A stretch of 64,000 bases of DNA from Catajapyx aquilonaris (lineage: Eukaryota): positions 1 to 64,000 of the forward strand of contig KZ538033.1 of the NCBI GenBank assembly GCA_000934665.2, read 5' to 3'. Each line of letters starts with the position of its first letter. Position 1 is the stretch's first letter. Under the pieces are notes generated by a model. It did not search any database. It worked only from the letters and a program-made list of their open reading frames with translations, and had not been told where the DNA came from. The position numbers were made by a program, and so were the translations under genes. Of the stretch, positions 36,131-64,000 are shown in pieces.

Positions 36131-36159
36131 TCTCTCTCTCTCTCTCTCTCTTCTCTCTC
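36131..36159. repeat. (TC)n microsatellite, interrupted
   Basis: Seen directly. Confidence 0.85.
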
Positions 36160-38336: not shown

Positions 38337-38426
38337 CATTACCGCAGCACTTTGACGATTTCGAACGCCCAGCGCGACCAGTCTGAACACTTACCTGCAA
38401 AGAGAGAAATTAATGCGCTTTTAGTA
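38337..38426 (-). promoter_or_regulatory. Candidate recursive splice site (junction 38395/38394) with a 52-nt cryptic exon
   Basis: Minus strand: TACTAAAagcgcattaaTTTCTCTCTTTGCAG|GTAAGT, then a second donor GCG|GTAATG 52 nt downstream. Confidence 0.75.
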
Positions 38427-40014
38427 CAAAAATATACACTCAAATTTAATGTGGCCAACCGACTCACCACTCAAAACGGCACCAAAATTGAGCTAAATGT
38501 TTCCATATAACTTTCATATCTATAGTAATATACGCATTTTCTGAGCAACAAAAGCAATACGTGACAGTGCAATTAAGACCATACAACCAGTCCACACGCT
38601 GCACAAGGCAATATTCTTCCTCCATGAAAGAAATGCTCCGAAAAAAAAAGAAAGAGGCGACACGTTTCCAGGCAACAAGACCTGAATCCAGAGACGAAAG
38701 ACATTCATCCCTTCTCCCTTTGAGAATACAGGAAGAACGACTTAGTCACTTTCTCTCTGTCGCTTTCTCCACCTGCCTTCCAGATCACTGTCAAGAAAAC
38801 GGGAACCACTACGAAAATCTTTCGGTCTTTCTTTTTTTTCCCCTCCTCTTCTCTCTTCTTCGCTTTATATTGACACGAGACAGTTGCACTTCTTCTCATT
38901 TTTAGAAGCGGATCAGAAGTTGCCTACAATCCAAGTAACTGCCAGGGGCCTTTCAGTCAGGGTTCGACTAGCGTGTCGTCCACGAGTGAAAAAATAAAGT
39001 CCTACGAGATGTTGACAGCAAACCATTGAAGTTTTGCCTCCGATTTTATTTTGGTGCGGGGGAAACTGCGATGTCAGTTGGCGTTGAAAACTGGTGGAAG
39101 CTTTTTTTCCGCTCCAAAAAAAAGCCGTGGGACCAACTGTAGTCAAGCGGCCTGGTTCACGGAACCGTAACTTTGAGGTATAAAACATGGAATTTTAATT
39201 TAATTTAAATTCTCTCGGGCACTAATCGCCGTGGGAGCTAAAAACGTGACGCCCCCCCCCCTCCCAGCTAAAGAATATCGGGAAATGAAAGAGCGATCGC
39301 AAACACGATCGTCAGTCATCAAAGAGTGAGGGGGGTTTAGTCTGCTTTTCTGTGTCTGTACAGCAGCCAAAACCCAGAGCGGTAATCCCTCAGAACCGCA
39401 GCCACAAAGCGAGCAGTGACCACCGCTATAATAGCACTTTGGTTGGAGGCTCGAAGGCGCTTCCATAAATTACCGGCGGGCGCGAAAATGGAGGTCACCC
39501 CCACTCCCTTCCCTCCCTCCCCCGCCTCTCCCTACCCATTTTCGCAGCAGCAATCCTCACCCGGCAGCAGGGGTAGCAGGACCTCCGGGTTTCGAAATTT
39601 ACGACCGTCCCCATGTCGACAAATGCCTGCAGCCGAAACCTCTCAAGCTTCTTCGCCGTGACCTTCTGACCCTGCGCAACGACCGTTCCGCCGAAATTAA
39701 TCCTCTTAAATAAAAGAAAAAAAAGAGGTCCAGGGGTGGGTGAGAAAGCTTAAGCCGCTCCATTTGAATGAAAGAGGAGGAGCATCAGCGGATTTTAGGG
39801 GGCTGTAAGTTCACCTCACGTGCTAGCAAGATAATCTGCTTAGAGGGGGTGAAAGAAAACCCGGATGTTGACTAAAAGCCAGGCGATTTATTGCCTCCGA
39901 GCATGATATTTGGGTAAACCCTTAGCTCAATTTCTCGCCCAGTCAGCTAAGCGCACCGACAACGTCAAAGCCGTTTAGCCGCCCTCTCATGCTATTAGAT
40001 ATATACAGGAAATC

Positions 40015-40223
40015 AAAATAGCAGGAATCGCTGCTATTATGAACAATAGGTACAGAAATCGCTGCGATTTTAACAGAAGGTAACAGATATCGCTGCTATT
40101 TTGAACAACAGTAACATAATTCACTGCTACGTTAACTACCGGTAACAGAAAATCACTGTTATGTTAACTGACCGTCACAGAAATCACTTCTACGTTAACT
40201 AGCGGTAACATAAATCGCTGCTA
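40015..40223. repeat. Degenerate minisatellite, about 7 units of 30-32 bp
   Basis: Consensus approximately AACWRNNGGTAACAGAAATCRCTGCTAYKTT, head to tail. Confidence 0.88.
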
Positions 40224-43200
40224 GTCAGAAATAGCTCTTTTGCCCGTCCGACAACGACTATAGTCGCAATTTACTATCCTTTCTATGTAATGCTTTAAAT
40301 ATTGCGAATGCAGGGGCCTCCCTTATGGCATCTGGGCTTGGAGATGGAGCAATCTACAAATGGCAAGACATTTCCGTAAAATCATTTTCCCTGCAGCCAT
40401 GTCTGCCAGAATCCATTTTTATATAGCGTATGAAGAAATGGGGGAAGGAACTAAGTTCACAAAACGCACTTCCTTGCTTTAGAATGCATCTACGGATTGT
40501 GAAGACGGCTCCGGGGTCAGCTCTAGAAAATAAAACCGACTCCATCCAAGCAAGAGGGCTCGGCAGTTGGAAAGAGCACCACCTCGACCTCACTTCCATT
40601 CCGACATTTGCTGAATATATGCATCAGACTGATGATACTGTATTTGCCTAAGCTTCCTCTTCCTCTTTTTTTTTCTAATTGAGAACATAACACTGCAACA
40701 TGCTTAAGCATGCATGAGAACCCGTCTCTTTTCCGATGACTTCTCCTGGCGATGCGTGACTAAATAACCTCCTTTGTATTCAGCCCCGTGGCGTCTAAAT
40801 GGATTTTGAAACACCTCACCCGAGGAAACTAACGCACCGGTACCCATAAGTTAGCATATATCAGCAATAAAATTTATGCTGACTTTCCAAAGCCGGTTCG
40901 CACTTGGCCAAGTATATGGGGAGAAACTTATACCGGCGGAATAATTTTCCCTATAAGGAAACTTGGTGGGGTCCCTGCAGTCGCTGACTGTTATCCTCTG
41001 GCTTCCTTTTGCACCATGGTATGCAGGCTTACTTAATTACGTCGTGGGGGCTTTCTGGACGGCCGGGTATGGATGGGCAACTCCGGAAATTCGGCTCCGC
41101 AAGCAGGACAAGCGTAAAGAAGGCCCCTCCGGAGATAGCGCCGACTTGTTGGGAATGCAAGGCGCGGACTCGATGCCCGCCGTCCCTTTTTATCGCCGTG
41201 TTTTATGTCCCGGGGATGAAATGGTTCCATCCATTCCGACCACCAGGAACAAACAATTGCTTTCCAACTGGCGCATACCATGCATCAAATACATGTGTAT
41301 AAGGACCCGGGGTCTCAGAGCTCAAACAGACGGAAACGATCCGGAATGTGACGAGACACCCAGTGTTCCCAGCAGAATCCGCTCACGTTCATAAAAATAA
41401 CTGCTAATTTTGAACACAGCATGTTTGAACAACTGCTACGTTTGACACTAGCATGAATGGATAACCGCACAATATCACATAACTATCACTGCTAATATGA
41501 CAGTAGCAGATAATAATCCCTGTTAATTTGGCAATAGCGGATAATAATCACTATTATTTTTTGAATAAGCTGTATGTAGGGGGGTCGAAAATCGCGGTTT
41601 TTGCTCAGACTTGCTCGAGTCGTTCTTATTCGCCTGTGCCTGGAGGACAGAGCACACATTTGGCGGCAGGTTAAATCCGAGGAGTAGCCTGCAGCGAGCG
41701 GCGCATCGATTGATCCGTTAGCACTCTTCAGCTTACGCAGCAGAGAAGTGGGAATCAAACGCTGAAGGCGTCCCATTATTTCCCAGGGAGGGAAAGAAAA
41801 AAAAGAGGGGGGGGGGGAGAGGAGGAGAGAATGGGAAGGGAGGAGGAAGGGTGCAGTTTCCACGGCCACAATTTCCAACATTTCAAATGCAGACAGCATT
41901 TTCCCGCAGCGTAGATTGCATCAGAAGTTGAGTGGGCCTTGGCAACAAGCAAAGAGGTGACTAAACATGTCAAGTTTTGCGCAGATACATCGTCTGGATC
42001 AGAACCCCCCCCCCGCTCGAGACAATCGCCCCAAAAACTTCTTTTTTTGTGTGTGTGTGAAACGAAAACCCAAGATCGAAGTTCAAATAGCTGAAAGAAA
42101 AGTTACTTTCCACAAAAGAAAACTTCAAACTTTATAAACGTTGCCGAAATGTTCGTTTTTTTCACAGACTTCTTGTCCCGCAATGTGAACATTCTGACAT
42201 CAAAAAAAGCCAAACATGTCACACTTTCAGGCTGTAGTTTAGCGGTACAAATAACCGCCAACACACAGTGGCATGCGTATGATGAACCCTGCTGACCACA
42301 AATAAATGAACTGGCTGCCCTCCGAAAATTTATCACCTGCGGAGTCAATCGATTGTGCGACAAACCAACCCTGCATGTAATTGGAATATTCCAAGGGGTT
42401 TGATATTACCCCAGCAGTGACGTTGCAGCTTCAAGAAAGATGCAGCCAACCAGTAGATATTCCGTTCCGTTGGAGATAAATGAGGTCTGTCCTGCGCCAG
42501 GCATCGGCTAATTTGAAACTCTTGATTCTAATTGCAGCATGCTGCCTATTATTCAGGACGAGCTAGAAGCCATTAGAATATCGTCGGAGGCCTCGGGGGC
42601 ACCAAGTGCTGAAGGCAGTTATATATTGCGGTAGGGTGAGCCCCAACCAAAGCCAAGCGTCCCGTTCATTCCTAAAAGTATTATGTACTGCATTATTCAT
42701 CCACGTGGATTTGCATCAAAAAAACAAGGCCGTGCCCAGGAGAGATAGAGAAAAAACCTTGTTCTTAACAAATTCTTTAGTAAAAAGTGGGTGAAGATCC
42801 AACCCGACCAGAATTTTAAAAAAAGAGTGGAATGCGACAATCAAGTAAACTTGTTTCCGCGCTAATAACCTCATAAAACTTGCACTGGGATTGTGTCCCG
42901 CGAGACCCACATTTTCTTGTCCTCTACTTGACGCAGGAAATGTGCTACGGAGTAGCTTCCAACCCACTATCTCGTGATAAAGAAACAAGAAAAAAGTACT
43001 CGTAGTAGGGAGAACCAAGCCTTTTTCTACCGCCCCCCGTATGCGAAAACTCGCTAAAGAAACACTGTTAGGGCCGGAATAACATCGCTTATCGCATTCA
43101 AATCTTACAAGATTACAGGCTTGCGCAGATGGAAGGAAAAGAGTGAACGCCAATACGGACAGAATTGGGCACATATTGATCAGAATCTTCTACATCATTT

Positions 43201-45807
43201 GCCTAATTTATACACGAAGTTCTGAACTGTGTGCTTGCAATTTTAATTTATTAACTTCGTGTTTTCGTATTTATTTACATTTATATAATTTAGCACTTAT
43301 TTTTGTTCCTTTGGTGTATAGGGAAACTCCTTATAGGCTCACTTGTCAGCAGGATTGCAGGTGTGCATTACGAATTTGAACATACTGAGTATTGCTAATT
43401 CATCAAGACGTACTGCCACTGCAAATCCAGTCCTCGCAGAAGTGGATTTGATCTTAATTGGCAATTAATAAACCGCTCGTAACAGGGACACACCTGGAAA
43501 TTAGACCTCTAAAAATGGGAGGCCTTCGCCGGAGCTTCCGGAAAAGACTTCCAAGAATCCGGAACCTAGACTCTCTCTAAGCCCCCGGAATCCTCCTGGA
43601 CGATAACAACATTGGTTTTCAATACCACCAGAGCCCCCAATGACAAGGCGGCCAAGATTGTATATGTCAACGGCCGCAAAATATATAGCGCTATAACTAA
43701 GGGAGAGAGGGGGTGGGCTGGAAAAAGAAAATTATTTTATCCGGGGGGGGCTTCAGCCGTTAAATCTGACGCTCAATGCTGCTCATTGGGAAGAGGCAAT
43801 CAAATTACAAAGTGTGCAAGGGAGGGCTGGAAGGGGGACTGGGGAGAGGAGGAGACGGGGAGAGAACCGATCCTCTCCCTTCCAATCATCTGGCTTGCTT
43901 TCCAGAGAAGGGAAAAGGAGACTGGAAAGTAATGAGGAGGCGGCTTCCTTCTCTGCGGAATTCCACAGAAAATGAACGAAAGGATTTTTTTTCTCGTGTG
44001 TAATGTAAGTTTGACAGACTTTTTCTCAAGCTGGAAATGTGGTAAAATGTCAGCCCACAAATAATAAAAAATCTGTCACGCATTATGCAAAAAAAAGTAG
44101 GCTGCGGACCGAGTCATGATCTAGGAATAGTCAGTAGCGGACGGAATAAAAAGAAAACGAATGAATGGAAACGTCCAATGCTGTTAACAATTTGTGTGAC
44201 TTATGCCCATACTTATCGCGACTTATGGTCATACTAGTCCGAATAAATTTCCAAAGCCGGTTACGTCCAATGACGCCACGAACGACTCATACAAATAAAA
44301 AGCCTTCTCCCAGAGCCATTCCCGTCCTCTTAGACGACATTTTTCATTGTAAAAGGATGCTCTATTTTCTCCAGGCGAGAGCGAGGGCCAAATGGACACA
44401 AGTTTATGATTCCGACCCAAGAGGAGGAGATTTATAAGCATTTCCGAGGAGTCGCTCCATTCGGTAACCCCCGTAAACATCCTTTCAATTTATAACTTCG
44501 GTTAGCGGCAGGTCCTCCCCACCAAAAAAAAAAGCCACATACACACCCCGGATTTTCAGCAGAACCTTTCCTTTTTATCTGGGGGAGGTAAGAACCCTGT
44601 TTCAAGTCACGAGTCCTTTGGGTGTGATCAAAATCATGTCGTGAAGGGTTATACCATCAGGGGCTCGGCAGCCGGATAATGCGTCATGATCAATAAAATC
44701 AGGATTTGAAATTAATATGTAGGTACTAACCCTTCCTTGAAGATAATGACACTGCCTGTTATCAGTGTTCGGGTGCAAAATGAGACGATGTCAAGACTCT
44801 GCTTCCGCGAGCGAAAGAGGCTATTATGTATGCATTCAGCAGTGCTCCTAATGGCCCAGGAAAAATGGAAATGGGAAGGGTAGATGGGGAGGTTTTTGGT
44901 ACGAGCAGCCCACCCCTCGAGGCCTATCAAGGCAACAAGGTGCGGCAAAAAACAAATTGCCAAAATTTAGTTTGCAGGAAGAAGTTAATAAGCTCGGTTC
45001 TGATCATATCTCAGGCTTCGTCATCACGATGCTGGAATAGATTAATAACATTCTATGTATGGTGTAGACTGTTCAAGAAGAAGGGGAACAAAAATTACCA
45101 CAAAAATCAAGCATTTTGAGTCAGTAATTATGTCAAGAAAAATAGTAGAATTTGAGGTAGATTTTGTCTGGACGTTAACTTTCTGATGGTCTAGTTAGTT
45201 CTTTTGTTCTAGGACAGTAGACAATCTCTCACACTTTGAAATCATTTCATTACGCCCGATTGTTCAGCTACAATTCACGTCTTCACATTGCGCCTTTTGT
45301 TATGGAGCAAAATGAACGCAATGTATACAGGGACCTACAATGTCTCGCAGAAGTAGTTGCTTTCCAAGGTATAGTTGCTACACTTACAACAATACAATCG
45401 ATAGTTTCGGTGAGCCCGACTTTATAGCAGCCGCTTTGGTTTTTATTTTTTGAACTTCACATGTAGATCAGAAAGTTTTCTTCAACTAACCGTCTCCAAC
45501 TCTTGCTGCAGCCTTTCATCAAATCAACATTTTGATGAAGTGGCCGAGAGGAACTTTTCTCTGAAACTTTATTGGAAGAAAAGCCAAGCTTGAAAACATG
45601 GCTTCAAAAAAGTTTTTTTTACCTACAAGAGTTCGAATAATTTACATAATCTTCTATAATCAACTCCGTGTTCAACTAGGTTACGTGTTACAAATCCGTC
45701 CATAACATACTATAGCGTTCAACGTAATTGGTCTAAATGTACATCAGAATTTCTGTGGTAATTATAGCGTTTGTAGATTGTAAAATGTAAGTCAGGATAC
45801 ATCAAGG

Positions 45808-45966
45808 GATACATATGTAATTGAATTACATTGTTGGTTTCCAGTTTTGCCAACTAGAAGATTGTGAAGTTTGAGTTAGCACAGTTGCACTTGGAGTTGT
45901 CACAACTGGCAACCAACAATGCAATTCAATTACCTATGTATCATGACTTTAGAGTCACCCTGTATA
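45808..45966. mobile_element. Palindromic MITE remnant with a Tc1/mariner-like end
   Basis: 39-bp arms (45808-45846 and 45904-45942) with 3 mismatches; the right flank ends AGTCACCCTG-TA. Confidence 0.6.
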
Positions 45967-48900
45967 TTGGATCACCACCTAACCACATATCGTGCTTTGA
46001 GTGAACTTTGATTATGAAGCTTGAACATATATCCAGAACGGAACTTAATTTCATATTGCTCTGAGCAAATACCCGGTGAGGAGCGCTCTGATGCACATGT
46101 GCGTATTTTTGCAAAATATTATCCGCCATAATTTAACGCCCACTATGCAAGAAAAGCTAAAATATTCAAAAACATCTGCCACACTTTGTTGCGAAGAATG
46201 TAACATCGACATATTTGTTGTACACAGTCATGCTGGATAATATACTTTTTTTTTACTTTATCCTCCTGAGACCATGCTCATCATGTCATCATGGTCATCA
46301 TGTGACCATCCTTGATTCCATGCTTTTGGGATTCTCTGTAGGTAATGTATTCAGGGGTTGTTTGTCCAGATGGCATTCTGTAAAATGCGCGTTTAATCCC
46401 GCCTCGTCGCATCTTGTCATATATCCTGTCAAGCGATCGACATTGGAAGGTATTGCACAGCTGGAAACCGCCTCCAAAAACACCTACAGTGAGTTCTCAA
46501 CTAACGACCGTTACACAGCGCAGGTTGCAACCTAGCACCCTGGATTAGACATTTTAATTTGCGCCCAAAATGTAATTTCGAGGCAGCCTAGAGCTGTTGT
46601 GCCGTCATCTATAGCAACGTCAGTCAAACTAAGCCTCTGCCTGACTCACTATTCGATTCCAGTAATCCTTTCCCCCCCTGAAGCTTTTCAAGGTTGTCTT
46701 CATGTGCGCAAATGCCACCGGGTGTCACAGTTCTCATCCTCACTTATCCAGGCAGCCAGGCAGAGTACACAGTGATCTCAAACAGACGCGGTTTCCAGCA
46801 CACTTGTCACTTTTTTATATGCACAGTGTGCTCAGTATCGTGACATCCCGCAATATTCAAACCAGTTCTTTTGATGACCCGGCAAGGTGCTGACAAAATT
46901 TGAATGTGTCCCATTGTTTCGACTTGCCCCCATCCACATTAGTTGGAGCAGAATTCCTCCCCTATTTTTGAGTCCCGGCGGCCCAGAAAATTCGTATTTG
47001 CCTTTCCCCAGTCACTGCTGTTTACTTTTTCCAGATGACAGCGTGTGGCACATTCGTAAGTCGATAGGCCCGAGACCCATCCCTGAGGGGGCCTTCGTGT
47101 TATTTGCATAATGTGCACGCATCATTCCCTATAGTCTAGTGGGGGAGGGAGGACTATTGCTATAGGCACAGGCCTTTTACGGACGACTGTGTGCTCATCC
47201 ACTTCCGCCTCATGGCCGCTTGCAACCATGCAGATTTGAGTTCAAACCCGTAGAAAATCTTTTGTTTTTAGGCTGGGAGGTTTAGTTTAGAACTGTAGAG
47301 AAGCGAAGGAGATATTTACAACATAACCCAACACAGTGCTAACTTACTCTATAGCGCACTGTAGACATGACTGGCCATCCTATGAAGGTCAATGTGTATA
47401 TTTCTGATCTATCCCAACCAGGAAAAATACACACCGGGTTATATAAATCCTCTCCAAATAAATTCTTTACAACAAAGATGCCCTTGTCACCCAACCTGGC
47501 CAGCCTTCACCTTGGCCACCAGGAAAACAAACAAATTGCGCAACATTCGCACGATCATTGCTGATTACTCCCAAAGCAGGAAACCCTCAAAAAATATTGC
47601 AAGGCCGAATTTTTATGTTTTCCAAGGCTCTTGCTTTTCCTCCCCCATCAGCAAGAGCATGCTGGCAAAGCAACAAGGTGATTAGTCGCCTACTCCGGGT
47701 AAGCTTACCCCACATTTCCTCACCTCACGGATACTTCTGGAGGCCCCACCTGATTTATGACCTCTCTACTAAATGAGGTTCAAATTCCACGCTAATATTC
47801 GACACCTCCATTGGTTGGCATACCTTCCGGGGAAAAAACGCGAATTTTGTGCGGTTTTGGTGTGAAGCCCTGCAAAACTGCTACTATAAACCAGGCACGA
47901 AAGTGTCGTAAACGTCCCGTTTTCTCCGCGGTCCGTAATTCCCACACTCAGACGTCCAAATTAACGGCCGCCGGTCTCCGAATGGTCATCGCGTTATTTC
48001 TCCCAGCTCAGTAATTAAGAACAATTAGCTATTTCTGCATTTTCTTCCTTCTTGTATAGGTCTATCTAGCCATCTATTTTTTTGGGAAGGCGTGTAGCAA
48101 GCTTTTCGAGAAGCCTGAGAGAGCTGGCCTTCCCAAAGCCATTACAAGCTCCGTCCGGGCGTGAACGGGCAGAGAAGGAGCATTCTTACAGCTTCACACG
48201 AGATCACAGGGATATGAAGCGGCGCTTGGGCACAGAGAGCTTCGCCAGCTGTGGCCTTTCTAACCTCGTGAACCCCATGAACCCTGGGAGGCAGCGTTTT
48301 CCGGCCAAACGACCAAGGCGTGAGGAATGCTTCAGACGGTCCTCTCATGGAAACCCTTCATTTTGCCATCTTTGACATGCATGCCATGTGAACGTCTTAT
48401 GTACTCAGCCTGGGACATGCAATAAGGCGTCTACATGGGAGGCTGAAACAACATTGCACATTTTGGCTGGAGTCATTCATAACTCCAGCAGGAGCCCCCA
48501 TTTTTCAACGTCACTTCCTTCTCACCGTGCTTTCGCCATGATTAACAACTAGCGAGGCAACAGGGCCTTCATAAATCCCAGACCAACCCCCGGAGCTCTA
48601 AATAGTGTAATTAAGAAAATGGGAAACATTATCCTTGACTCTGGATCAGGCACCTCGCAAACCGAATCCGGATTATCCAACCTTAAGCGAAGTCATCTTG
48701 TGCACTCGCCTAATTACTCACAGGCTCGAACCCAGGACTTACTCAATTTGCATCTAGAAACGCAATCAAATCTTGGGGATAGAGGCAAGGTTCGCCATCC
48801 ATTAGGACTGTACCTGATGCCTTAATCGCCAAGGTGGACCTGGCTGGAATTGGTCCAAAAATAGTGTCGCTTCCGCATATAAATAACGGATCGGGATGAT

Positions 48901-49796
48901 TCGCCCCTAGGTTCGCCCTCGGGGCAGACACATACAAATGGCCAGCCGCCTTCAAGGTGTCGGCCCTTCGTTTTGCTAAGGTAGGAAGACCTTTTGTCTC
49001 ACGTGGAAGAATACCCTCCTTTGTCTTGATTTCCTGGATGGCTCACTTGGGCTCGCATGTACAAGGGGAAGCCCCATCGAGCCTATGCAAGATCGGAATA
49101 CTGGAGCAGGAAGACCGCCGTTTGGAAAATTTATTCCGCTCCATTCCTCTTCCGCTTCGTGGCAGTATATCCCCAATTCCCTGCATCATTCCATGTTCTT
49201 TTTCCTCTTTTTTTAAAAGAAAAAAAGAAGGGGGGGGGGGAAGCGCCTTTTTCTACACCCCTTGGAAACATCAGGTCTACTCGCATTCCCCGGAATGAAT
49301 TTATGGGCGCTGACACCACGTGTAAATGTGGCGACACGTCCATGGAACCAGCGTAACTTAATCTGGAATATTCCAGTTGTATGTAGAATGTTACCAGAAA
49401 AAGCAGGTCAAGTATGGCCGCATGTACGGAAAAAAAAGTCTCCTGCTGCATTATCATAAAGAAGACAGGAGTTAGCGAGCAGCGCAAGAAAACCGCATGA
49501 AATATAAGTACAATCCCGGATCTTCATTTCTTCCATTCATTTCCCGGGAATTATGGCCACGGCATTCGGAGAGCCCGCCGCTTTTACGTGCATTAAAAAA
49601 CTCTCATGGTCCAGAGGCCTGATTTACCTCGAAATGTCCCTCCATCGGTTCCTAGAAAGCGAGCCATCCTTCAGAACGGAATTTATTCTCAGCCAGTCCC
49701 AACAATAGCCCCCAGATTTCTTCCCCCAACCCAACCCAGCAAAAGTCTATACCGCGGCCTAGGCTAGAGGATGCAGTTCCTGGCCAAGAGAATTCC

Positions 49797-49800
<4 letters not shown>

Positions 49801-49840
<40 letters not shown>
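49801..49840. repeat. (CT)n microsatellite
   Basis: 20 perfect units. Confidence 0.97.
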
Positions 49841-49844
<4 letters not shown>

Positions 49845-52800
49845 CTGAGAGAAAAATAAGAAAAAGAGCAGACCATACCCCCAAGAAGAAGAAGGAAAAA
49901 AAAATCGCCCGGTGGCGCTCGACAAACGGTCTGCAGACTGCCATAAGTTAGACAAATGGAGTTATCAATATAAAAACGATGACGACGTGATAACCATAAA
50001 ATTCGGCACCAAAATTGCTACCGCTCCAGGAAAAAAGGGTGACCACCACGTGGAGAGATATTGGATTTTTTTCTCTCTCTCGCCCGACATCAGCAGACCA
50101 AGAGAACAATGTGATCTCTGGCAAATATGGTACAATATGCAGATGGGTGGAATTGGTTAATGACAGAACGGGCAGCAGTAAAGTGGGGCCTTTGAAAAAC
50201 ACTGCAGCTCAATTTAATGTCAAGTGATTTCTAGATTTGGAGGTTGGGCGCAGTCAAACAGCAATTAAAACCTATTTTTGAAGCATTAACAAAAAAATAC
50301 GACCGGCACATTTTAATTAGTATTACAGTGCAAATTGTGCGAGTAATTTGTACTTTCATCTCAATGGCCTCACCCATTTCGCCATGTTGCTGAAGTGCAG
50401 TCCTTTTTGTTTAATTTTTAATATGACAATGTACGAATGACAGTGCTCTTAGGCGTCTCCAGACGGTTGTTTGAAGCACACGTAAGGTCGCAAAAAATTT
50501 GTAAAACCTCTGAAGCAACTGTTGGCATTTTCACATTAGGAAATGGTCAACTTCAGTCTTATTATTAAAAATGCAACACACATTTCAATGCAATTTTGCA
50601 CAAAATATTCTGTCAACTGCACGCCCTAGTCCCACAGACTTTTAAATAAATTACTCGACTCACAACAGTGTTACCACAAAGCATTACCGGCACGATTTTA
50701 AACAGACGGAAAAATACGCGTTCAGACCAGTCCACTCTCTCCATGTAACAAAATTAGCCCATCCCGTTACCTGACCATGTTACCACCAGGCAACGAGTTA
50801 CATCAACCCAGCTTCCAAGTGCTTCTACCCCAAACCGCAAAAGCCGGCCTAGGCCTCTGCGGGCTTTTCCGCCTTACACGAGGTGCCCGGAAAAGAGGAT
50901 TGACCCCCATCGCCCATAGGGAGATCTCCCCAGGTTATTTATCAACAGGCGTGCAGCAACATGGGGTAAAGGAAAAGGAGAAAAAGGAATGACGCCGGAA
51001 GAATAGCCGTCAGACCAAGATCGAACCCCATCCTTCACCTGAGAGACTCTGGCGCCATGCCCAGAAAACTGCAAAAAGAAAATTGTGTCACGAAATGACA
51101 AGATACACCCTGCTGTGTTGAAGGAAACAAGGAGACACCCTTTGCGTGTAAGCTTCGAACTTTTTCGGTGGGATCACTTCAATTCTGATGGAAAAAATAC
51201 TCTCCAAGGTCCCGTATAAATTAATCATGCGGGTATATACTCTCGTCGTGGATTAGAGGATGGCTTGGTAGCTTGAATCCTCCGCCATTATCTGCATGCA
51301 TCTGCAGGCACGCAGGAGGAACGTGCACATGTTCTAATTTTAATCCGACAAATGTACAGTGTGGGCACAAAATTACACTCATTTTCCGTGTGGAATGCCA
51401 ATTCGTGGCGGGGGTACAGTCGGGACATTTTTTCGCAATTTATTATTAAACGGGGACGGATCCGTACCCGGCGACAAACTTGTGCATTATTTATTATAAT
51501 GAAGTTGCTGCAGGTTGGACTCGACGGCGGGGCATGCAACGGGGTGTTAGGTGAGAGTGCAGAAGTTTATTAAAAATAAATGTGCACATTTTGTTAGGAA
51601 TGTGCAAATTTCGTCCTTTCGCTTTGAACTATGCAGATGTTGCAAGTGCCAATATTATCGCCGAGCAAAAGGTTAGTGCGAATAATACTGAACGCTCTAC
51701 AGCACCTGCTGGTTTATACATCAACAGAGCTGTTGACACACGAGTTTAACATGACGTCAAAGGTTCTCATGAGGTGACAACATGCAAAATATAACAAGCC
51801 GGTGGGTAAATTATTAATTATAAACTCTTTGAAAATGCACCGTTGAACAAAGAGAACCGAAACCGCCAAATGACAGAAACACGGCGTCGACACACCACGC
51901 AGGTTTTTGCAAAAAAAAATATATTTATGAAAAAGAGAGCCTAAACCCGATCACTTTCCCTCAATTACTCCTGAAATAGTGTCCAAAAAGGAGAGTTTAA
52001 AACGAGCAGTTTTAGTGACAGAGACATACCGTGAGGGTTGAAGTCGTTCCAAATTCGCGTGGGGAATAATGTATCACCCGAGTACCTACGACGGACAATC
52101 GTAATCCTTGCAAAACGCGCAACTTCTGCTCTGATTGGGAATTTCATCCATCACGGTTCTGTTATACAGGAATGGGCGCAACTGCTAACTGCAACTGGGG
52201 GAAGGCCTCCTCTTCTCTCTATATATAGTTTTTTCTTCGTTTCCGGTCAGGATCCAGTTTCAAGGAGAAATACGAGCCTATTAGTGCGAGCAAATTGGTT
52301 AGGAACGACACAAAAGCAACATGGTGGGGGTCCAAATTGATCAAATTCCAGAGAGTTCGATTTCCTGCCTCTCACTTCCAATTATGTCACCATAGTGCAA
52401 AAACCTGGCGAGATAGAAATAGTCTAACAAGCAATTTTTTGCAACATCCAGTGCACTGCAAAGTTTGTACATAAAATGAAGTGAAACTCGCGTCAACATT
52501 ACCTGTGTGTACCACTCTCTGAAACTCAAATGGCAGAGTTTGGGGCAGTCCGAGTTTGCAAAAATCACTCTGCTCTTTTTCTGCACTAGAAACCAAAAAA
52601 GGCTTAAAGCACATAGGGCCCAATCACTCACTTCCATTTCCTTCTTTATGGGCTTTACCTGCGTGCTCACACCGTCCCATTTTACGCTTTTTGTGCTCGC
52701 AAAATCGTTCGCCCACCCATGAGGGTGTAAACCCGATTCCATTTGGAAAACAGTTGCATGCCGGCTCGCATAATTTGAAACCAACTATGGCGGAACTGGA

Positions 52801-55800
52801 GGGGGTCGATCGAGAGACCCCAACAGCGATGGTAGCTCTTAACAAAAACCTGCCTAGCAGTTGAAGGAGTCAAAAAGTGCGCAAATTCTGATATTTTGCC
52901 GGCAGTGAAATAATACTGGGACTGCATTATCGCATTTCGCAAAATGCCACTGGGCATTACAAGACCACACATTACGTGGTGCAAGTTCCTGTACAATGCA
53001 GTACATTGCCTTGACTGAATTCAAATTCGCAAAAGTATTTATCCGAGTTCGTAAACGCGAATGCAACAAAAATGTTTTGTCGCACATAATTATTATTGCA
53101 TTAATTTTGACAAATGAATCACTTTCAGCAATTAAATCCCACCTCACATGAAATACACCGTAAAGATTCGCAAATTGGACGAATCGTTTGAAACGTGTAA
53201 TAAACGTGGGACATTTATTCCCAGTCACTTTGAACCTTTTCACACGCCCGATATTTCTTTCTCGAGCGCCAAACCAGCAGCATTGGCAGTATTTTCCATG
53301 CACACAGCCCCCCAATCGAACCAAGCAATTTCCAATCATAAGCTGCACTGAATGTCAAGCCAGGAAATATGCTTTTCATCGCCGTTCCCCCCAAACTACC
53401 CAAATGATGCCCAGGTGTTACGATAGCAATAGAAATGCACATTCCGGCACTAACAAACGACCCTGTGTTCAATTACTAAACGCAGTCCATGTTTTTACGC
53501 CTTGCTATGCGTACATTGTATTCAACAAACTTTTTCCGGTTCTGCTGTTTTACAGACTTATTTTAATTGAAGCAGAGCTAAGGGGTGGTGCACGTAGCCA
53601 GGAAATTAACTCTGAAGTGCACGGAAAACATTCCAAGTAGCCATTAGTGCAAACCATTTATGAGATTCGGAGGCCGTTACAAAGCACACAGCAGAGAGCC
53701 TGTGCAGACTGAAGCATTTATGGTCCACGAAACCTGCACTCACCCTCCTAGATGCATAGAGCCAGCCTATTTTTCTATGTGAACACACGTCACATTTTTG
53801 TTACTAGGCTGCACAGCGGCCCATGTACTGTTCTCTGAGGGTTTTCAGAGGAGTAATCGTGGTTGCAGCTGCAGCAAGCAGATTCAAGTTTGAACTACGG
53901 AAACTTTCTCCCCCTTGAATTGCCATAATCCTTGCAGAGCATTTCTCATGCTGCCGCGGAGGAAAACTTGCCACATAAGAAATCACGATTCCATCTAAAA
54001 TTAGATCTCATTTGCGAAGCGTTTCATCATCAGTTGGAGGGGAAGACATTCCAGTGGCCTTACTAAGACGGCAGGGGGAAAACAGAGGCTCACTATAAAA
54101 ATGGGAGGGGAAAAAAATTTGACCATTTACTACCAGAAAATTCAGCGAAAAAATTAGTCTAAGCGAATCCCAAGCAATTCCCAAGTCCCTCACTATTTAT
54201 ACGACTCTTTAATTCGATTCATCACCAACCCTGCGACACTTAGCCGGATCGAATGAGTTCGTACCCAACTTTTTTTATGCACCGGGGAGATAAAGTTGTT
54301 GCAGGAAATTCCTAGGACGGAAGGGTGAAAGATGGGTATAAAACCTATCCACCAAAACCCTTACTAGTTTCGTTAGATTTCGATTGCTTTCCACCCAATT
54401 TCTTGGCACTTTCGAGATCCTCCGGACTGCGATCAAGTCCCACTTAATCAGATTATGGCCGCCCATCATTCAAGCTGCTTATTTCGCTAACGAAGTCCGA
54501 GTCATTAATCAGAGAGAGAGAGAGGGAAAGGGGAGGGGACGCTGTTATATCCCCAAATGACATTATAGTTGTCTTTCCGGATGATGCCCACAGCCATCAA
54601 TAATGTGCCGACGCAGTAGAAAACGCGAGCAAAAAAGCAGGAGTAGCAAGTGTGTGGTATACTGATATGGACAGATAATAGAAACATGTATGAATTTCAA
54701 TATTTAAAAAAAGTATTCACTCTCCTTCCAATTCACCACATAAAAATCTGGCCCAAGTTCTCAAATATGACCTCGCAGCACTCTATTTATTTATAAGGTC
54801 TCATGTATGCTGAATCTTGAAGTAGTACATTCCATGCATATATAAAGGAAAAAGGATTCAAGATTGCACTGATTATGCGATTCCATCGACGGATATATCC
54901 CCCTCCCACTCGAACTGCAATGCAGACGTGGAAAAGGTACATATACAATCGAGATTGATGGCAATATTCAGAGAGAATATAAATCACCTCGAAAAGTACG
55001 GCAGCATGAACTGAGTTAGGACCTACATTCGCCGGATATTCGCTTTTATGTCTCCATATCCAAGTGCATTTCGGGTTACCAAAAGACCAGATTTGAATGT
55101 CATAAGATAGAAAATGTGTTTCCCATCAGAAATGTGCGGGGCTGAGGGAAACTTTAGAGGTATAGAGGGGGCTATATATACACACACACTTCCTGCCTAG
55201 GCACACTGTATAAAACCCCGGCTGCAGATGTGATCAATGACTCCCTTTGCAGTTCTGAGTGATGTTTGCGGTATGGCATTATGGGGACGATTTTTTTCCC
55301 GGTCCGGATCCGAGAGAGAAAAAAAATGATACACATATATATAGTATGTCTGCCAGAAATAGTATTTCCTAATTAGTTCCACTCTATTCCTTCAGCCCTC
55401 ATTGCAGCTCATATACCGTTGGCAAGCAGAAATTGGAATGCTTATTAATTAATGCGGCTAAAAGGAGTCACGGGAGCACTACTCTGACGCCATCCTCCAA
55501 ATGAGAACGGCCCTGTCCTGGTTACTAATTCACGTCTACTAATATTATGTCATCGTCCGGCGACGTAATCGCCGTCCATCAAGAAAATATGAATGAGCAT
55601 TACAATTCAAAGCGATTTTTATAGGTCCGGCTCAGAGATGACCACTGTCCTTTTCTGCCGAATTTGTGGAAGGAAAAAAAGTGCTGGAGGTTCCGTCTGT
55701 GCTTATCAGCTCACTGAAGGAGAAGAGAATTGCGGCAGTCTTGTGAGTATTGAGGCCAAACTGGTTCGGACCAACCTGCAGGGCGTTCCGATGCTTTCTG

Positions 55801-57097
55801 CTTCGCCACCCGATTCCCTTTCCTCTTTTTTTTCCGGCTTCTTTTCTTCTCCACCAGTTTACTCCCAGGACTAAACTATATCAAGCATATAGACCAGTAT
55901 GGCCCCAAAACTGTGCTTCGTTAACTTGTGTGAGGCAAGAGTATAAGTGTCGATAATGGGTAACGACTTTAAGTTTGTTAGAGAAATTCTCCTCCTCCCG
56001 CACCCTCACCCTACCCGAAATGAATCTCTTGCAGAAACTCGGCTCAAAGTTCGAAATAATTATCAGAGTCGGTGCCTGGCCGAGAGTATACACTAGCTGC
56101 ATCTCGCCCATTATCTTTCACACTGGCAAAATTTCTACAGCAGCACGAACCGGATGGAAACTCTCGAAAGTCGCAAGTTTCTGTCACGTGACTAGTCCGC
56201 TAACTATATACACAAAACCAGTAGTTAGCCTCACCCAAAATGCAATGTGAAACCGATCGGCCGACACGGACAGCCAACAATGCTGGTGGAGCAGGGTTTG
56301 AAAAGCACTAAATTGCCGCCGAAAACACAATATGTGTTTGCGATGGCCCCACTATTGTGCTGGCTGGGAAACAGGAGGATCCTTATTAAAATAACAATAT
56401 TTATGCGTCGTGCCCATAAAAGCCGAATCACAATGTTGCATAAGCGGAAAATAATGGCGCTGACTCGAATTTCATCGGCGAATTAGTAAGTTCCATAACA
56501 TTATAAGCATGCTAACATGGTCAACACAATGGGCTAATTAGGCTCGTTTAATGCGGACCCCCAATTTTAGTAGTCTCCTTAGAATTTAACCGGTTGGATT
56601 TGTACCATTGCGGGCACAAGGTGAGTCAAAAATATATTACACATTCCAAGCATGGCCCCAGTTTCCAATCAATATTCCTCTCATTTCTTGGCAACGATTA
56701 CTGCCTCCTCCACTTTTGATATTACAAAGTCTGAGGCTGTAATACTCGCCGGGGCTGAAGTTCCCTCGCCGCCAATCCTCATGTCCCACTTGTATTAAGA
56801 ACCCCCTTCTGAAACGGTGCTGCGAGACAGCTGACAAATTATTCCACTGCCCTAGGAATATCGATTTGTGCGAAAAAGGGTGGGGTGGGTGGGTTGGTAG
56901 GGGGTCGCGAAATGCCCAATTAGCATAGGCATCTTGTTATTCTGATTGATAAAGTTGGGAGAATGGTCCGGATGGCTTATTAGTATAATGCATAATTTGC
57001 ATATCTTCCACGATTTGAGGGGGAGTTCCTACGTGTCCAGACGTGAAGTTCATTATCTGCATGGTGAAATATTCGCTGCGCCACGTTTCAGGCAATG

Positions 57098-57164
57098 ACT
57101 TACTGTTCGGTGTGTATTAAAGGATGCTTACCTGTAATGAGAGAGAAAAAAATCATGTTAGTCA
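57098..57164 (-). promoter_or_regulatory. Candidate recursive splice site (junction 57132/57131) with a 28-nt cryptic exon
   Basis: Minus strand: TGACTAACatgaTTTTTTTCTCTCTCATTACAG|GTAAGC, then a second donor ACA|GTAAGT 28 nt downstream. Confidence 0.75.
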
Positions 57165-57663
57165 ACCTTTGACAACAGCACTTTGTCGCAATGAAATTAA
57201 TTACAGCGCCCCAGTGCGGTCAACCTCTGACCTCCCGGCCCACGCACTAATTAATGTGAGTGGGGATTAATCCGTAAGGTTAAATCCTTGTTTAGAAGAG
57301 GACGGAGTGGACCTTGTAAACGAACGGATTAGTTTCCGTCACGTTAGCAAGGTGTGTCATTTTGTGTTCGACTCCCTGTGGAGGGTTCGTGTTTTGAGCC
57401 CCGGGAATTGTGCAATTGATGGCACGGCAAATCCCGGTTACAGCTGCAAGTGGGGCATAATTAATTCCCTCAAGCCAAGGGGGTATTACGAGTGTGTGAG
57501 CAGGTGCCACCAGGGTTAGCCTAACCCACGATGGAGAGCGGTGCCACGATAGAACCGGATTTATGACTCCCAAAGTGTAGTTTGGAGAAAAGTAAGGGGG
57601 GGAAGGGGGTTTCGGAAATTTCAAAGGATTTAAACCTGGATGAAATATTGGCATCTCACAATA

Positions 57664-57702
57664 TACAGGGTGTGCTGAAGTTGATGATACGTACACCCTG
57701 TA
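57664..57702. mobile_element. Tiny Tc1/mariner-like remnant (TA-CAGGGTGT...ACACCCTG-TA)
   Basis: 10-bp perfect inverted ends including TA, around a 19-bp spacer. Confidence 0.45.
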
Positions 57703-60700
57703 GCTGGGTGTAGTCTCCAGCAGTATATTAGAGCCCCGACTTGTATTTCCCCCCAGAAAGTGCAAGGCTCGCCTCCCTGACAAAAGCTGGAGCAGGCAGC
57801 AACATGACCCGAGGTCGTGTCCCTGTCTCTGTATATAGTTGGGTTGATACCCGAAACGGCAGAGTGGGCACAGTAGCCTCCCCTCCCAGCCCCCTCTCCT
57901 TCATTAGCGGGCATCAAGAACCCTCTGCGTGCTCCGCATTTGGCCGGAAGCAAAAGCCCAGCTGAAACACGGCTGGAAACACGCGTTCCAGAAACAAAAG
58001 GGGGCGTCTTGTCGGGTGAGCTGGAGCCCAAGTGACACCTCGTGATGTCGCCGAGGAAGAAAACACACCAATGTCTCTTGCTTCACTGACGACATTGTAA
58101 CGACAAACTCATTCCATCCCCAAGCCTCTGATTATTTCCCCTCCATTAACTCAGCTCTTGCCTTGTTGTGAAAGGCTTTCCATTCAAGTCTCCATTCGAC
58201 CGAAATATTACCCTTGACTTCCGTCTGCCTCTTTTTTTTTTTGTAGCAGGCCGTGCTCTCAAAAAGTATATGGAGAAAGAGTTCAAAATGCCAAAAGCTA
58301 TGTGTATACCTTTCAGTAATGGGCAAAGGCACTGCAGGCACTCGTGGTAATGGAGTTGCTAAAAATACCTGCAAGTTTCGCATTTCCTTCCTGCACTGCA
58401 CAAAATGTTCTGTCAATGCAATTAGGAAAAATATGACAATTATGCACAAAAAAATTTGTAAATTTTTGAATATAGACACGCATTTCAAATTTAATGATAG
58501 CCCAATGCCACTCTAGAATCAAAGCACATCAGCCACTGGGATATGCCACATATTCGCACGTACATTATACAATACAGTACATGCGGTAATGAGTAGCATT
58601 AAAATTAGTAACATAATTACACTTCCAAAATCAGACGCGTGGAACGCTATTAGAATCGCGCACAAAGGCACTGCTTAAATATTTAACACCTATATGTTGT
58701 AATTTTGGAAAATCGGTGTTCCGGATCAGGTTTTTAAAATGCAAAATTGTCACGTTTTGAAAAACCGGGCGTATCGGACGCCTGTCTGAATCGGTTTCAC
58801 AACCCTTTTGGTGCGTATACGACAGAATGTAAACCGATTATTTTAAGCCGTAAATATTTATTAGGCTTCGCATGCACACGCGGGGCCACTACTTTGTTAT
58901 GTTAATTTCATCTCCTCTTGTATGCTCTTTGACGCCGAATTATAAAATAACTGCGCCCTGTTTTTACTTCCATGAACTTTCCCATTTATGTGGTTAGATC
59001 CACCCTGCACGGGCTCACAACACCCACAAATAATATAATAACGACACGCTTAATTCTATTAAACTGGAAGTAGGGGGGCTTACAACGCACCACCATCACA
59101 CCGACACATACCACCCTTGCCTTTTTCATCCCCAGCAGTTCCAGGAAACAGCCGCGGTTACCTGCAGCTGTCACGGTCAATTCCCCAACCCAACTACCTC
59201 TTTCCCCTATTATACCCGACAATGTAAGGCCGGATCTAAGTAGAAAAGAGTGCAACTTTGCATGCCAAATCAGCGCCTAGTAGTATCTTCTCTTCTCTTT
59301 TCCCCCTCCAATCTAATCCTGGAAGGTCTCCCCCCATGAAATTCCTCTGGTAATCCAGCCCCCACTCGGCCCTATTGACTTCCCTTCCTGATCCCTTAAC
59401 CCGGAGAACAATTACGGCATGGTTCTTAAAACCTCTTCCCACTTCTATTTCGGAGCTCTAAGCTAATGACACTTTCTATTAAGATTTATCGCTAATAGGC
59501 CTATTGGGGCGAAGGGATGGGAGGAGGGGGAAGAGGAGAGAGATGAGCCAAGAAGTTTCAACTGAAGGAGCAGCTCTGAGAGGACTGGCTAACCAGGCTG
59601 GGTAATGCACTTAAACGTGTTTTATCTAGACGTCCTGTTCATTAGTTGCGCCTGGCAATAGAGGGGGAGAGATCCCCAGACCTGAGCTGTTCCTGAATTC
59701 TGGGAGCGTTTTTATGACTTGACGTGAGTTACATCTCGTCGCGTGAGAATTGCAGGGTTTCCCAATGCTTGCCTTTATTTGCCTGCAGATACGAGCACAT
59801 AAGATCAGCCGGGTGTTATACAAAGAGCAGCAGATGACCTTAGACCCAGGAATACACACTTCATAATGTGACTTGTCTCTATGATAATTATGCAGGATAT
59901 AATAATCCAATCAAAGGAAAGACAAAGCATCACTGCCACATTTATGATCTTGATATGCACGTCACCATATTATTAAAATACATGGAATTACCTCAGTGGC
60001 AAGAATGGCTCATTGCGCATGGATACTTCCACAGTTGTCTCGCATGCGGCAACCAAATGAAAATAATTTTCCATACACTGTGCTTTTCCATGCACACTGC
60101 ACAAAAAAAAATTCAAAAAAGAGAAAACTGCATTTAATACAAGAATCCTTTCATTCAATACACCTGAACGCGAACTATGCGGAGCGTGTACAGTGCAACT
60201 AATCCACAGACGAGACTTTCAGTGTAGTATAGAACAAAGGCCATGCCAGCATATAAATGAAGGGCCGAGGTATGGAGCTATAGCAAGAGCAGTCGTTTTA
60301 ATTTAAAGTTCCGCTTTATTTTTTTTGATTCCCATATCAAATATCAATAGGATTGCAAGTGCACTGTAAGTTTAAAAATCTGGATTTCAATTTGCAACAA
60401 TAATTTGCTTCACAATTGACTATAGCTTTTACGAGTATTATTGTGCAGAAAATGTGTGTCCCAAGTCTGTATTTTGGTACCACACAACCTATAACGCTTT
60501 TTGCTCATTCTCTTCAGACTTCGTTCCATTCCCTTCCATCCGAAAGACTAATTCGGAATGGGCGAGACCACCTGGACTTCTGCCCCCAAAGTTCCGGGGG
60601 CTGGAGACCTATACACTTCCAGAAGGTAGCTCTTGCATCCTCACGCCACCTGTCCAGGAGATGATTAATACACGATGATGCACTACCGACGCTTGCCGTT

Positions 60701-63700
60701 CCGCGAAAAAGACCTTTATTTGTCAATAGGAAGGCTCCTGGACAGATGAAAAATGGGCGCTGACGGCGTCCGTTATTGGACTTGCGACCCCCGCGCATTA
60801 TGACAGCTTTTTTTGGAGGTTCCCAGATGCATGGACCCAACAGGGGGGCTGGACCCAAGGACTACAACGTGGCCAGACACTTCCTCGTGTGTATATATTG
60901 ATAATATATAGAAAAAAAAGAGAGAGGGGGAAAAGGAAATGTGAGGGAAATCGGAGAAAGGCCACCGGATGCAGGGAAAAGTCCGGACGAAGACTGATGA
61001 TGGCTCTGCCCGCTTTAGGGTTCAGGGGATTCAGATTTGAGCCATCAGTTTGAGGGCACTTCGGCGGAAATAACGATGCGGACGTCTGTCAATGGCGAGG
61101 AACTGCTAACAGTTCAACCGAAAAGGGAAGAGAGAGGGAGAGAACCCACCAAGCAACACCTCCAGAGGGGCCAGTTGCAGAGTCTAATAATTTTTTAAGC
61201 CAAAATTGCAGGGTAGTTGTTATAGACATGCATGTTTTTGGCCGAACGTGACAGTTGCGAATCGGAAAACGCTGCAGGATTTTTCATAACTGCAGCTGGA
61301 TTAGACTTGTTCATGGAAAAAAAAAATCACAAACTGTAGTGTCAATAGTTATTATATTGAAGAAAAAAAAGAGCCGGGTTTTCTGACAGAAGGTTGTATA
61401 GTTCCGGAGGGGGGGAAACTATATTTTCGTTGCAATTCTAATGACAGGATGTGCGGATTTAAATTACAAAATTTCCGGGAAAAGCTGATGTAATCGTATA
61501 GGCTGGGTTGATGTATATTTTTCTACCAATATTACAGTGTAGATAGTTCCGCTTTTTGGAGCATTAAAAATACATTGCGAGGGAGAACGTCACCTCCGGG
61601 CACAAGTTCGCTAGATTCTGGTACAAAAAGGCAGCCAGCGTTATTTTGATTTTTCGATAAACAAGCGCACGGCTGTGTACTTCCGCATTATAATCTTCGT
61701 GCAACAACAGTTCGCAGATTCTCTTTTTCACGTGGGAATTACTACAGACTGTGATGCATGTTATCGCATAAACGTAATAAAAAGCAGGAAAATCCGTTTT
61801 TCGATCTATCTACCATGACCATATAAGTCAGTTAATTCTCATATTCACAAATTGCCAAATACATCACGTTTCAAATGAGGTTGCTAAAGTGCAGCGACTG
61901 TTTAAAAATAAATGTGGCCCTAATATTTTTGCAGTGTTACAGGTTTTAAAACGCCCAGTCAGAAAATTAAATATTGGCACATACAGTTGCGGTTGCACAG
62001 TCTGAATCAACATGCAAAACGCATATACCATCAGCAGTGACTGGGTTATGCAACGTATCTACCCAAAATTAACACCAATCGTATCATATGGCCGTACAGC
62101 AAACGTTGCCATGAGCAACGACATCTACTTCTGATTAATGGTCACATTTATACTGTACCAACTAATAACTACATTAGAGGGACTCTCGTTACTCTAGTAT
62201 TGAAAGCTTCATGATTTTCTCCGAATGATCAGGTTCACATAGTGTGTGCCACAGGTCATTGGCACACGTCAATTGGAGACTAATGAATATCCTCGTCAAC
62301 GCGCCACTGTACCGATGTAACATGAGTACTGCTCTATGGGTATCCACTAATATTAGAGCTTCGAAACACAAAATTAAACATCGACAATCATATGACGTGT
62401 TGGAATTGATCGCAGGCTAATATATACTGAAAGCCGCAATCGACATCAAAGTTCGAAATTGACAAATCGTAAATATATTTATACGATCACCCTAACTTGA
62501 CTGTACAAAATCCGGGAAACGTCCTTCAAGTTGAAAATTTCTGGTTGCATTTTACCTCTCTCGTAAGTGCTTTTCCTATGATTTAAAAGATGCGAAAGTA
62601 CACTGCACAATTTCATATATAAAAATAAATATTTATATAAATGAATAAAATAAAAATGACGGAGCATTTGCATACTTAGCAGTTATATTTTTATGCACAT
62701 TGTCAGAATAAGAGATGAACTGAAAAATCCAACCGGACTGTACTGTATAATTGCATGACCTTGTTTGTACTATTATTATTTTTATTATGATTTGCTTCGT
62801 AACAACATCAACTGTAATTTAGGTGTAACTTATAAAATTCGGAGCACAGTCACAGCCCAAGGCTCAACCTGCCCAGAATTTCCAGCCCAAAAAACTCTGA
62901 CAATCCACACGAAACTTTGGTCCCAATGACGCTGGATACGTAACTTTCGCACCTCCAAGGCACCAAATCTGGTATTTCGCTTCTGACGCACCCAAGCACA
63001 ACCATCCAGTCTCAACAAAAATTATCCCTAATTTGGCTCCACCATTGTTCCAAGCCCTGAATGCCAGAAACAATGGCCCCAGACCTTCCTTCCCCCTGCC
63101 GTGTGCTAGATGAGAAAAATAGCCCCGGTTGCAAACATGGGGTCTACAATATAGGTGTGCAGCAGCATCAAGCCTTTATCCCTGCCACCCCCAGAATGGG
63201 AACAACGGTACGAGTCCCTTGAAGACGTTTCTGGCCAACAAACCTGCCTCCATTTCCGCCCCCCCTCCCCAGAAACCCCGGAGTCACGTCTGCTGCCAGG
63301 AAAATTAAGCCTATATATGAAGCTGCACCCAGCATTATCTCCATCTCACAACCGCAGCATTCCGAGATGAATAGAAGATTCACAGGCTTGATGCGCTGCT
63401 CCAGAAAGTTTTTAGGGGAAGGAGAAAACCGACCTCTCGGTTCCAATATCGGTTTTCGCCAGTGGAAGAGCCTACTGCTACCTTTCACCTCCTTCCTGGC
63501 TGCCAAACCTTCACGGAATACCAGCCAGAAACGTATACACTGAGCTGTCATACCGACGACTCACAACAAGGATATCTTTACCAGGCAGATGCAAGTAAAC
63601 ACTAAAACTTACACAGTATCGCCAAAATTGCCTGTATACATGCACCTGCCACAAAATATTCCAATTTATGCGGCCTGTGCAGTGCACAAATTCCGTACAT

Positions 63701-64000
63701 GACATCGAATTAGATTAAAATGGCAAAAACAGGATCCTGCCTCCCCAAAAACCGGCCTATCTGTCCGGGGGAACCTGCAAAAAGAGCCGAACCTGTAAAA
63801 CCTGGTAGAAAGATAGCGTTGCGGCCACACAATGGCGCGGTATAAAAACTGCAGGGGCCTCTGTGTCCGGGACTGCAGGCGCGACGGACAAACCAACAGC
63901 TGCAGGCCTTTCCGGGAAAACCCGCACATCCAGCAGGGGGAACTCTCAAAAAACCCAACACACACACTCTTCCAACTAGGGCTATACATTATGCCCGCAC

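Follow-up and report, generated by a model that had tools for sequence, protein, structure and literature searches.

A candidate fly-type recursive splice site with a 28-nt stop-containing cryptic exon in a long phase-0 intron of a predicted furin-like protease 2 gene of Catajapyx aquilonaris

Intronic ratchet points of Drosophila with cryptic RS-exons are reportedly the subject of the work of Burnette in 2005 and of Joseph in 2018, and vertebrate RS-exons are reportedly that of Sibley in 2015. In the fly ratchet points, an acceptor with a prominent pyrimidine tract directly adjoins a donor site; TT occupies positions -6/-5 in 196 of 197 of them, their branch points are located mostly at -36 to -21, and they reside in host introns of 11-133 kb, from which segments averaging 17,953 bp are removed (Duff et al., bioRxiv 10.1101/006163). 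A high-confidence recursive site was reported for 63% of the fly introns exceeding 40 kb, the sites being regularly spaced (Pai et al., 2018; PMC6110457, in part). In work from the Lai and Ule laboratories, the ratchet point is described as being first seen as a short cryptic RS-exon by virtue of a donor located less than 100 nt downstream, after which the RS-exon's donor competes with the regenerated one (PMC8605326 and PMC6224609, both in part). According to the part of the former article cited here, the cryptic RS-exon of flies is typically about 50 nt long, generally out of frame and always skipped, while weakening of the ratchet donor in fly mutants resulted in inclusion of the RS-exon and in loss of function (PMC8605326).

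In vertebrates, the recursive 5' splice site likewise competes with the RS-exon's own one (Blazquez, 2018; PMC6224609, in part). Within the furin family, five recursive sites in two introns of about 40 kb are given for Fur1 of D. melanogaster (FBgn0004509), three of the five being present in the set of Duff et al. as well and three of the five carrying GTAAGC (Pai et al., 2018, S1 Table; PMC6110457, in part). Fur2 of D. melanogaster was not found in the same table, which covers S2 cells only and was searched by FlyBase identifier (PMC6110457, in part), and no report on recursive splicing of Fur2 was found in the literature searched. As for arthropods other than Drosophila, the literature searched contained only a motif prediction in a locust gene accompanied by U2AF65 pull-down (PMC8892266).

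The window analyzed here, i.e., the whole stretch of DNA under study, comprises positions 1-64,000 of contig KZ538033.1 of Catajapyx aquilonaris (GCA_000934665.2), and its G+C content is 39-50%. A proprotein convertase P-domain (Pfam PF01483, E = 6e-25) was detected in the minus-strand ORF 3031-3933, the relatives of which are arthropod proteins designated as 'furin-like protease 2'; the top named match was a springtail protein with 83% identity, and Drosophila proteins displayed 66-74%. Out of 120 proteins, the 74 with matches to all of six conserved exons were ranked by identity over these exons: proteins including those of insects of many orders fell within 64.6-71%, and three entries were closer (74-77.5%), one being the springtail protein and the other two unnamed. 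Judging from tblastn with homologues and from the Pfam P-domain match, on which both the identity of the gene and its exon map (Table 1) are based, the host gene is the furin-like protease 2 (Fur2/PC5-like) of a non-drosophilid arthropod. Downstream of the exon ending near 4189 (window 4170-4200, minus strand) the sequence reads ..GAGAG/GCAAGT instead of a GT donor (here and below, a slash marks the splice junction), and the respective intron may be of the GC-AG type. The assembly contains a single N at window position 13067.

Table 1. Coordinates of the gene exons, the long intron and the elements of candidate recursive sites A and B in the window.
Feature	Position	Strand	Basis or remark
Gene exon	18738-18568	minus	tblastn with homologues; covers catalytic His region (...HGTRCAGE...)
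Gene exon	15069-14890	minus	tblastn with homologues
Gene exon	6420-6238	minus	tblastn with homologues
Gene exon	5966-5820	minus	tblastn with homologues
Gene exon	4560-4189	minus	tblastn with homologues
Gene exon	3888-3130	minus	tblastn with homologues
Gene exon	2674-2459	minus	tblastn with homologues
Gene exon	1671-1486	minus	tblastn with homologues
Long intron	18739..64000	minus	at least 45.2 kb; 5' end beyond window
Site A: branch-point-like motif TGACTAAC	57164-57157	minus	branch A at 57158, -27 from junction
Site A: polypyrimidine tract T7-CTCTCTC-ATT-AC	57134..57152	minus	T7 at 57152-57146; then CTCTCTCATTACAG, ending in AG
Site A: AG of candidate recursive 3' splice site	57133-57132	minus	sequence
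Site A: candidate ratchet-point donor GTAAGC	57131-57126	minus	would be regenerated once the upstream exon is spliced on
Site A: putative cryptic 28-nt RS-exon	57131-57104	minus	phase 0: GTA AGC ATC CTT TAA = VSIL-stop; length 3n+1
Site A: RS-exon donor GTAAGT, context ACA/GTAAGT	57103-57098	minus	strongest donor within 200 nt downstream of ratchet point
Site B: TACTAA, then TTTCTCTCTTTGCAG/GTAAGT	38389..38430	minus	branch A 38421 (-27); AG 38396-38395; donor 38394-38389
Site B: possible 52-nt RS-exon	38394-38343	minus	weak donor GCG/GTAATG 38342-38337

The exon at 18738 opens on the minus strand with cag/GAT TCG CTG (D S L), and this beginning aligns with the ..NY/DQLASTD.. of the homologues; therefore, the preceding intron is in phase 0, just as the original prediction had assumed. 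The exon expected to precede it carries the highly conserved ..SILDDGIQTNHPDL..NY segment with the catalytic Asp. When the N-terminal 330 aa of 75 homologues were used in tblastn, only chance-level matches were obtained above position 18800 (best E = 0.029), and a motif scan for the upstream exon in six frames of the window revealed no LDDG, DDGI or ILDD. Weak matches near 63867-63941 were considered as the upstream exon and rejected, their translation being nothing furin-like. As the preceding exon is absent from the window, the intron must be at least 45.2 kb long and run past the window end; its true length and the end of the upstream exon are what we infer, the 5' end lying outside the window. 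An intron at the same phase-0 position (..NY/D..) is present in five metagenome relatives (L016, L017, L019, L048 and L052), where it measures only ~70 bp to 1.7 kb versus more than 45 kb here, and two further relatives (L004 and L007) have this position without an intron. By sequence comparison, the NY/D intron position is old; since the intron found there in other taxa measures 70 bp to 1.7 kb, the one of more than 45 kb in the present gene is an expansion.

Several repetitive elements are found within the long intron, and site A is located outside any repeat. At 45887-45969, a dispersed ~80-nt repeat displays a DNA contig word depth of ~1000-1400 versus 20-30 in its flanks; many DNA contigs end or branch there, and this repeat is the sole part of the region 38200-58199 shared with another run of the same species. 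Midway along the intron, a tandem array (40027-40214) is built of ~31-nt units (ATCGCTGC..GGTAACAGA-like), with four 63-nt copies in register. A simple repeat of the GA/TC type at 49791-49851 corresponds to a RERERE run in ORF 49652-50017, and the DNA contigs break at it. The sequencing runs matched to 54000-60000 were four DNA runs of one sample, probably that of the source, and a small run labeled with the same species, with no RNA run among them. At sites A and B, the DNA contigs covering 38200-58199 are identical to the assembly, with no joint or loose end there; these contigs probably originate from the source sample, so their agreement is not an independent confirmation of the assembly.

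Regarding the anatomy of site A, a branch-point motif, the sequence T7-CTCTCTCATTACAG/GTAAGC and a GTAAGT donor 28 nt further on had been proposed from the letters of the DNA, and all of their coordinates, as well as the count of seven T, proved correct on the minus strand. The stop claimed for codon 5 was found too, as the 28-nt piece read in phase 0 encodes VSIL followed by a stop. Pyrimidines occupy 15 of the 16 positions from -20 to -5 of the site (CATTACAG/GTAAGC), which possesses TT at -6/-5. In comparison with site B, site A is less perfect, having A at -7 and -4 and C at donor position +6, and it is not matched by the stricter pattern YYYYYYNCAGGTRAGT at one mismatch or fewer. GTAAGC itself also constitutes an ordinary donor at 6238 of the host gene and in the relative L048.

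An acceptor within a long intron could also belong to some other transcript, i.e., to an alternative exon, to the product of an internal promoter or to a nested minus-strand gene, coding or non-coding. Such units are common in long introns, and two long minus-strand ORFs (57295-57900 and 57633-58082) are situated just upstream of site A. These two ORFs are, though, among the 102 ORFs with 90 aa or more found in 19000-64000, none of which gave a Pfam match; the long intron gave no Rfam match either, the lengths of the ORFs are, by our own estimate, near those expected by chance for 45 kb, and the GTAAG standing directly after the AG would be left unexplained. We regard an origin of this kind as very improbable.

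A second site of the same structure, site B, lies in the same intron. Its core is a perfect CTCTCTTTGCAG/GTAAGT at 38396-38389, better than that of site A, and apart from the weak donor of its possible RS-exon an alternative one, ATT/GTGAGT, occurs at +102. Both sites possess TT at -6/-5 and the motif ACTAA, whose branch A is located exactly at -27 (57158 and 38421, respectively). By our reading, TT at -6/-5 is also found in about half of the ordinary acceptors of the host gene, while a CTRA motif in the interval -45..-15 is present only at A and B among the six strong-acceptor+GT sites of the window. The two sites are 18.7 kb apart, site B is 19.7 kb away from the exon at 18738, and the long intron would thus be split into segments of at least 6.9 kb, 18.7 kb and 19.7 kb. 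A third CAG/GTAAGC (10467-10474, minus strand), situated in the intron that separates the exon ending at 14890 from that starting at 6420, was rejected as a ratchet point in view of its poor pyrimidine tract, the lack of TT at -6/-5 and the length of its intron, 8.5 kb; it is probably due to chance.

Whether such structures are more frequent than chance would allow was estimated for the whole window. Both strands together contain 389 AG/GT (170 on the plus and 219 on the minus strand), and the filter requiring at least 11 pyrimidines of 16, YAG and at least 5 of 6 positions of GTAAGT was passed by two of them, sites A and B alone, both on the sense strand and in the same long intron. A null model respecting the low-complexity tracts of the window (85 strong acceptor-like sites multiplied by the GTAAG frequency of 6.1e-4 per base) predicts 0.05 juxtapositions of a strong acceptor with GTAAG versus the 2 seen (Poisson P = 0.0013). 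The sequence TTNCAGGTAAG occurred twice versus 0.12 expected, a number reached in 1 of 100 shuffles, whereas CAGGTAAG alone displayed no enrichment (3 seen versus 1.38 expected; 3 reached in 14 of 100 shuffles). For the downstream donor of site A, the probability of finding GTAAGT within 80 nt is ~0.017 by hexamer frequency and only ~0.10 on a looser ad hoc donor score. All these tests and filters were devised after the site had been seen, therefore the significance values are somewhat overstated.

An antisense near-match, TTTTTTGCAG/GTATGT, was picked up by the stricter pattern YYYYYYNCAGGTRAGT at 27442-27457 of the plus strand, which shows that near-consensus juxtapositions arise on the non-coding strand too.

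These figures bear directly on the question of whether site A is an unused acceptor/donor pair that merely looks strong in a long AT-rich intron. Such an origin by chance would be consistent with the missing enrichment of CAGGTAAG, with the similar antisense motif at 27442, with the roughly one-in-ten frequency of the downstream donor on the loose score and with the post hoc design of the statistics, and of the 160 ratchet points predicted computationally in flies only 91 were confirmed by RNA-seq (bioRxiv 10.1101/006163). It is harder to reconcile with two sites where 0.05 are expected, with their common location on the sense strand of one very long intron, with TT at -6/-5 and the branch A at -27 in both of them and with their fly-like spacing. 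Considering both sides, we deem coincidence a serious but unlikely explanation. The motifs, their rarity, strand and spacing and the context of gene and intron are properties of the sequence itself, and with them site A, considered together with site B, most likely is a genuine recursive site of the fly type in use. For the narrower proposition, namely that site A is used as a Drosophila-type intronic recursive splice site whose cryptic RS-exon is normally skipped, we rate the chances as slightly better than even.

The resemblance to the fly ratchet points concerns most of the features listed at the beginning. In site A a strong acceptor adjoins a GTAAG donor, with TT at -6/-5; its branch point at -27 lies within the fly range; sites A and B share the sense strand of one intron that exceeds 40 kb; and the segments of 18.7 and 19.7 kb are comparable to the mean of 17,953 bp in flies. 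Like most of the fly sites, site A is followed by another donor at a distance of under 100 nt, and its cryptic exon, like the RS-exons of flies, is out of frame and contains a stop. Thus, the part of the original prediction that concerned a recursive site with a short exon defined by the downstream donor stands as to its anatomy and fits the sequence, the sense strand, the phase-0 intron of more than 45 kb and the partner located 18.7 kb away. Since site A agrees with the fly ratchet points in the sequence features just listed, the mechanism envisaged in that prediction is the established one and not a new proposal.

The differences are of several kinds. The host is not a drosophilid, and its protein is about equally distant from those of all insect orders and slightly nearer to that of a springtail; the RS-exon of site A is 28 nt long, in contrast to about 50 nt in flies; and, by consensus matches, the donor of this exon is no weaker than that of the ratchet point. 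The host gene resembles D. melanogaster Fur1 as a furin-family gene with candidate recursive sites, one of which, site A, shares GTAAGC with it; however, it is a paralogue and not an orthologue of Fur1. With vertebrate RS-exons site A would have in common the exon definition of the cryptic exon, an outcome set by the competition of two donors and an aberrant transcript upon inclusion. In vertebrates, however, the recursive donor is under repression by the exon junction complex, and an RS-exon is in many cases an annotated exon (PMC6224609, in part); the motif of site A, which has a strong TT-NCAG tract, belongs to the fly type. Finally, the exon of site A is similar to the poison exons coupled to NMD (PMC8605326, in part) in being short, stop-containing and frame-shifting, and its inclusion would truncate the protein before the catalytic His and Ser. 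Fly ratchet points, though, have been shown at the RNA level and poison exons are conserved with regulated inclusion, whereas site A and its exon are candidates recognized in the DNA sequence.

With respect to conservation, the core of site A had no exact 25-nt match in the metagenome contigs searched. Furthermore, 64 related metagenome loci were found with the 56-aa exon, and all of their 279,505 bases were scanned for YAG/GTRAG with a pyrimidine tract; the eight matches obtained included none in the orthologous intron, of which at most 6.3 kb was covered, versus the 19.7 kb separating site B from the exon.

The only point at which site A seems to deviate from what is typical of flies is the relative strength of its donors. 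In all five relatives having this intron position the upstream exon ends with AAT TAC, and one of them uses TAC/GTAAGC as an ordinary donor; therefore, the donor regenerated at site A would probably be TAC/GTAAGC. Counted over the intron positions, the RS-exon donor ACA/GTAAGT matches the consensus at 6 of 6, versus 5 of 6 for the probable TAC/GTAAGC, so that the ratchet donor is not clearly stronger than that of the RS-exon as far as can be judged by such crude consensus-match scoring with an upstream exon end taken from relatives; GTAAGCAT retains matches at +7 and +8, which tempers this comparison further. At site B the donors are in the usual fly arrangement, GTAAGT versus the weak GCG/GTAATG at +52.

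It is because the RS-exon donor of site A is apparently not weaker that the switch between productive and NMD-targeted transcripts, suggested in the original prediction, retains a low probability; the idea of donor competition as such is a published model and not a new one (PMC8605326 and PMC6224609, both in part). According to it, site A would be used and the 28-nt exon would be included at a meaningful, possibly regulated rate, directing the mRNA to NMD. The in-frame TAA at codon 5, the length of 3n+1 and the count of 6/6 versus 5/6 consensus positions would agree with such inclusion, as would the reports that the stronger donor wins in flies (PMC8605326, in part) and that rare isoforms including the RS-exon, set by such a competition, exist in vertebrates (PMC6224609, in part). 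On the other hand, the cryptic RS-exons of fly intronic ratchet points are those described as always skipped (PMC8605326, in part), and the donor comparison is a crude one, with the +7 and +8 matches of GTAAGCAT weighing on the side of the ratchet donor and with the upstream exon end deduced from relatives. We therefore consider substantial inclusion of the exon rather improbable. A still more speculative version, to which we give slightly less credence, would be a fly-type ratchet point far outside Diptera at which inclusion of the 28-nt exon is tunable, the RS-exon donor being at least as strong as the regenerated one, and acts as a poison-exon switch on the output of the proprotein convertase.

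Returning to recursive splicing with a skipped exon, the reading we prefer, the course of events may be outlined as follows. The 28-nt piece 57131-57104 would first be recognized as a tiny exon, delimited by the strong 3' splice site and the GTAAGT donor at 57103-57098, and the upstream exon, located outside the window and probably ending with ..AAT TAC, would be spliced onto 57131. This would regenerate the donor TAC/GTAAGC at the junction, which could then be spliced to site B (38395/38394), and thence to the exon at 18738. Owing to such stepwise splicing via A and B, the intron would be removed as three or more pieces, and the 28 nt would normally be absent from the mRNA. Use of the sites by the spliceosome, the order of the steps and the skipping of the RS-exon are what we infer by analogy with flies and vertebrates.

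Taken together, sites A and B represent a prediction, made from DNA sequence, of a well-described mechanism, and as such are of modest value. With its two donors nearly equal in strength, site A would lend itself well to testing the rule of donor competition. If confirmed by RNA, the sites would mean that the fly-style ratchet-point code, in which the TT-NCAG/GTAAG motif is combined with a branch point close to -27, with segments near 18 kb in length and with a cryptic RS-exon, works outside drosophilids, and that recursive sites are present in furin-family genes of more than one lineage.
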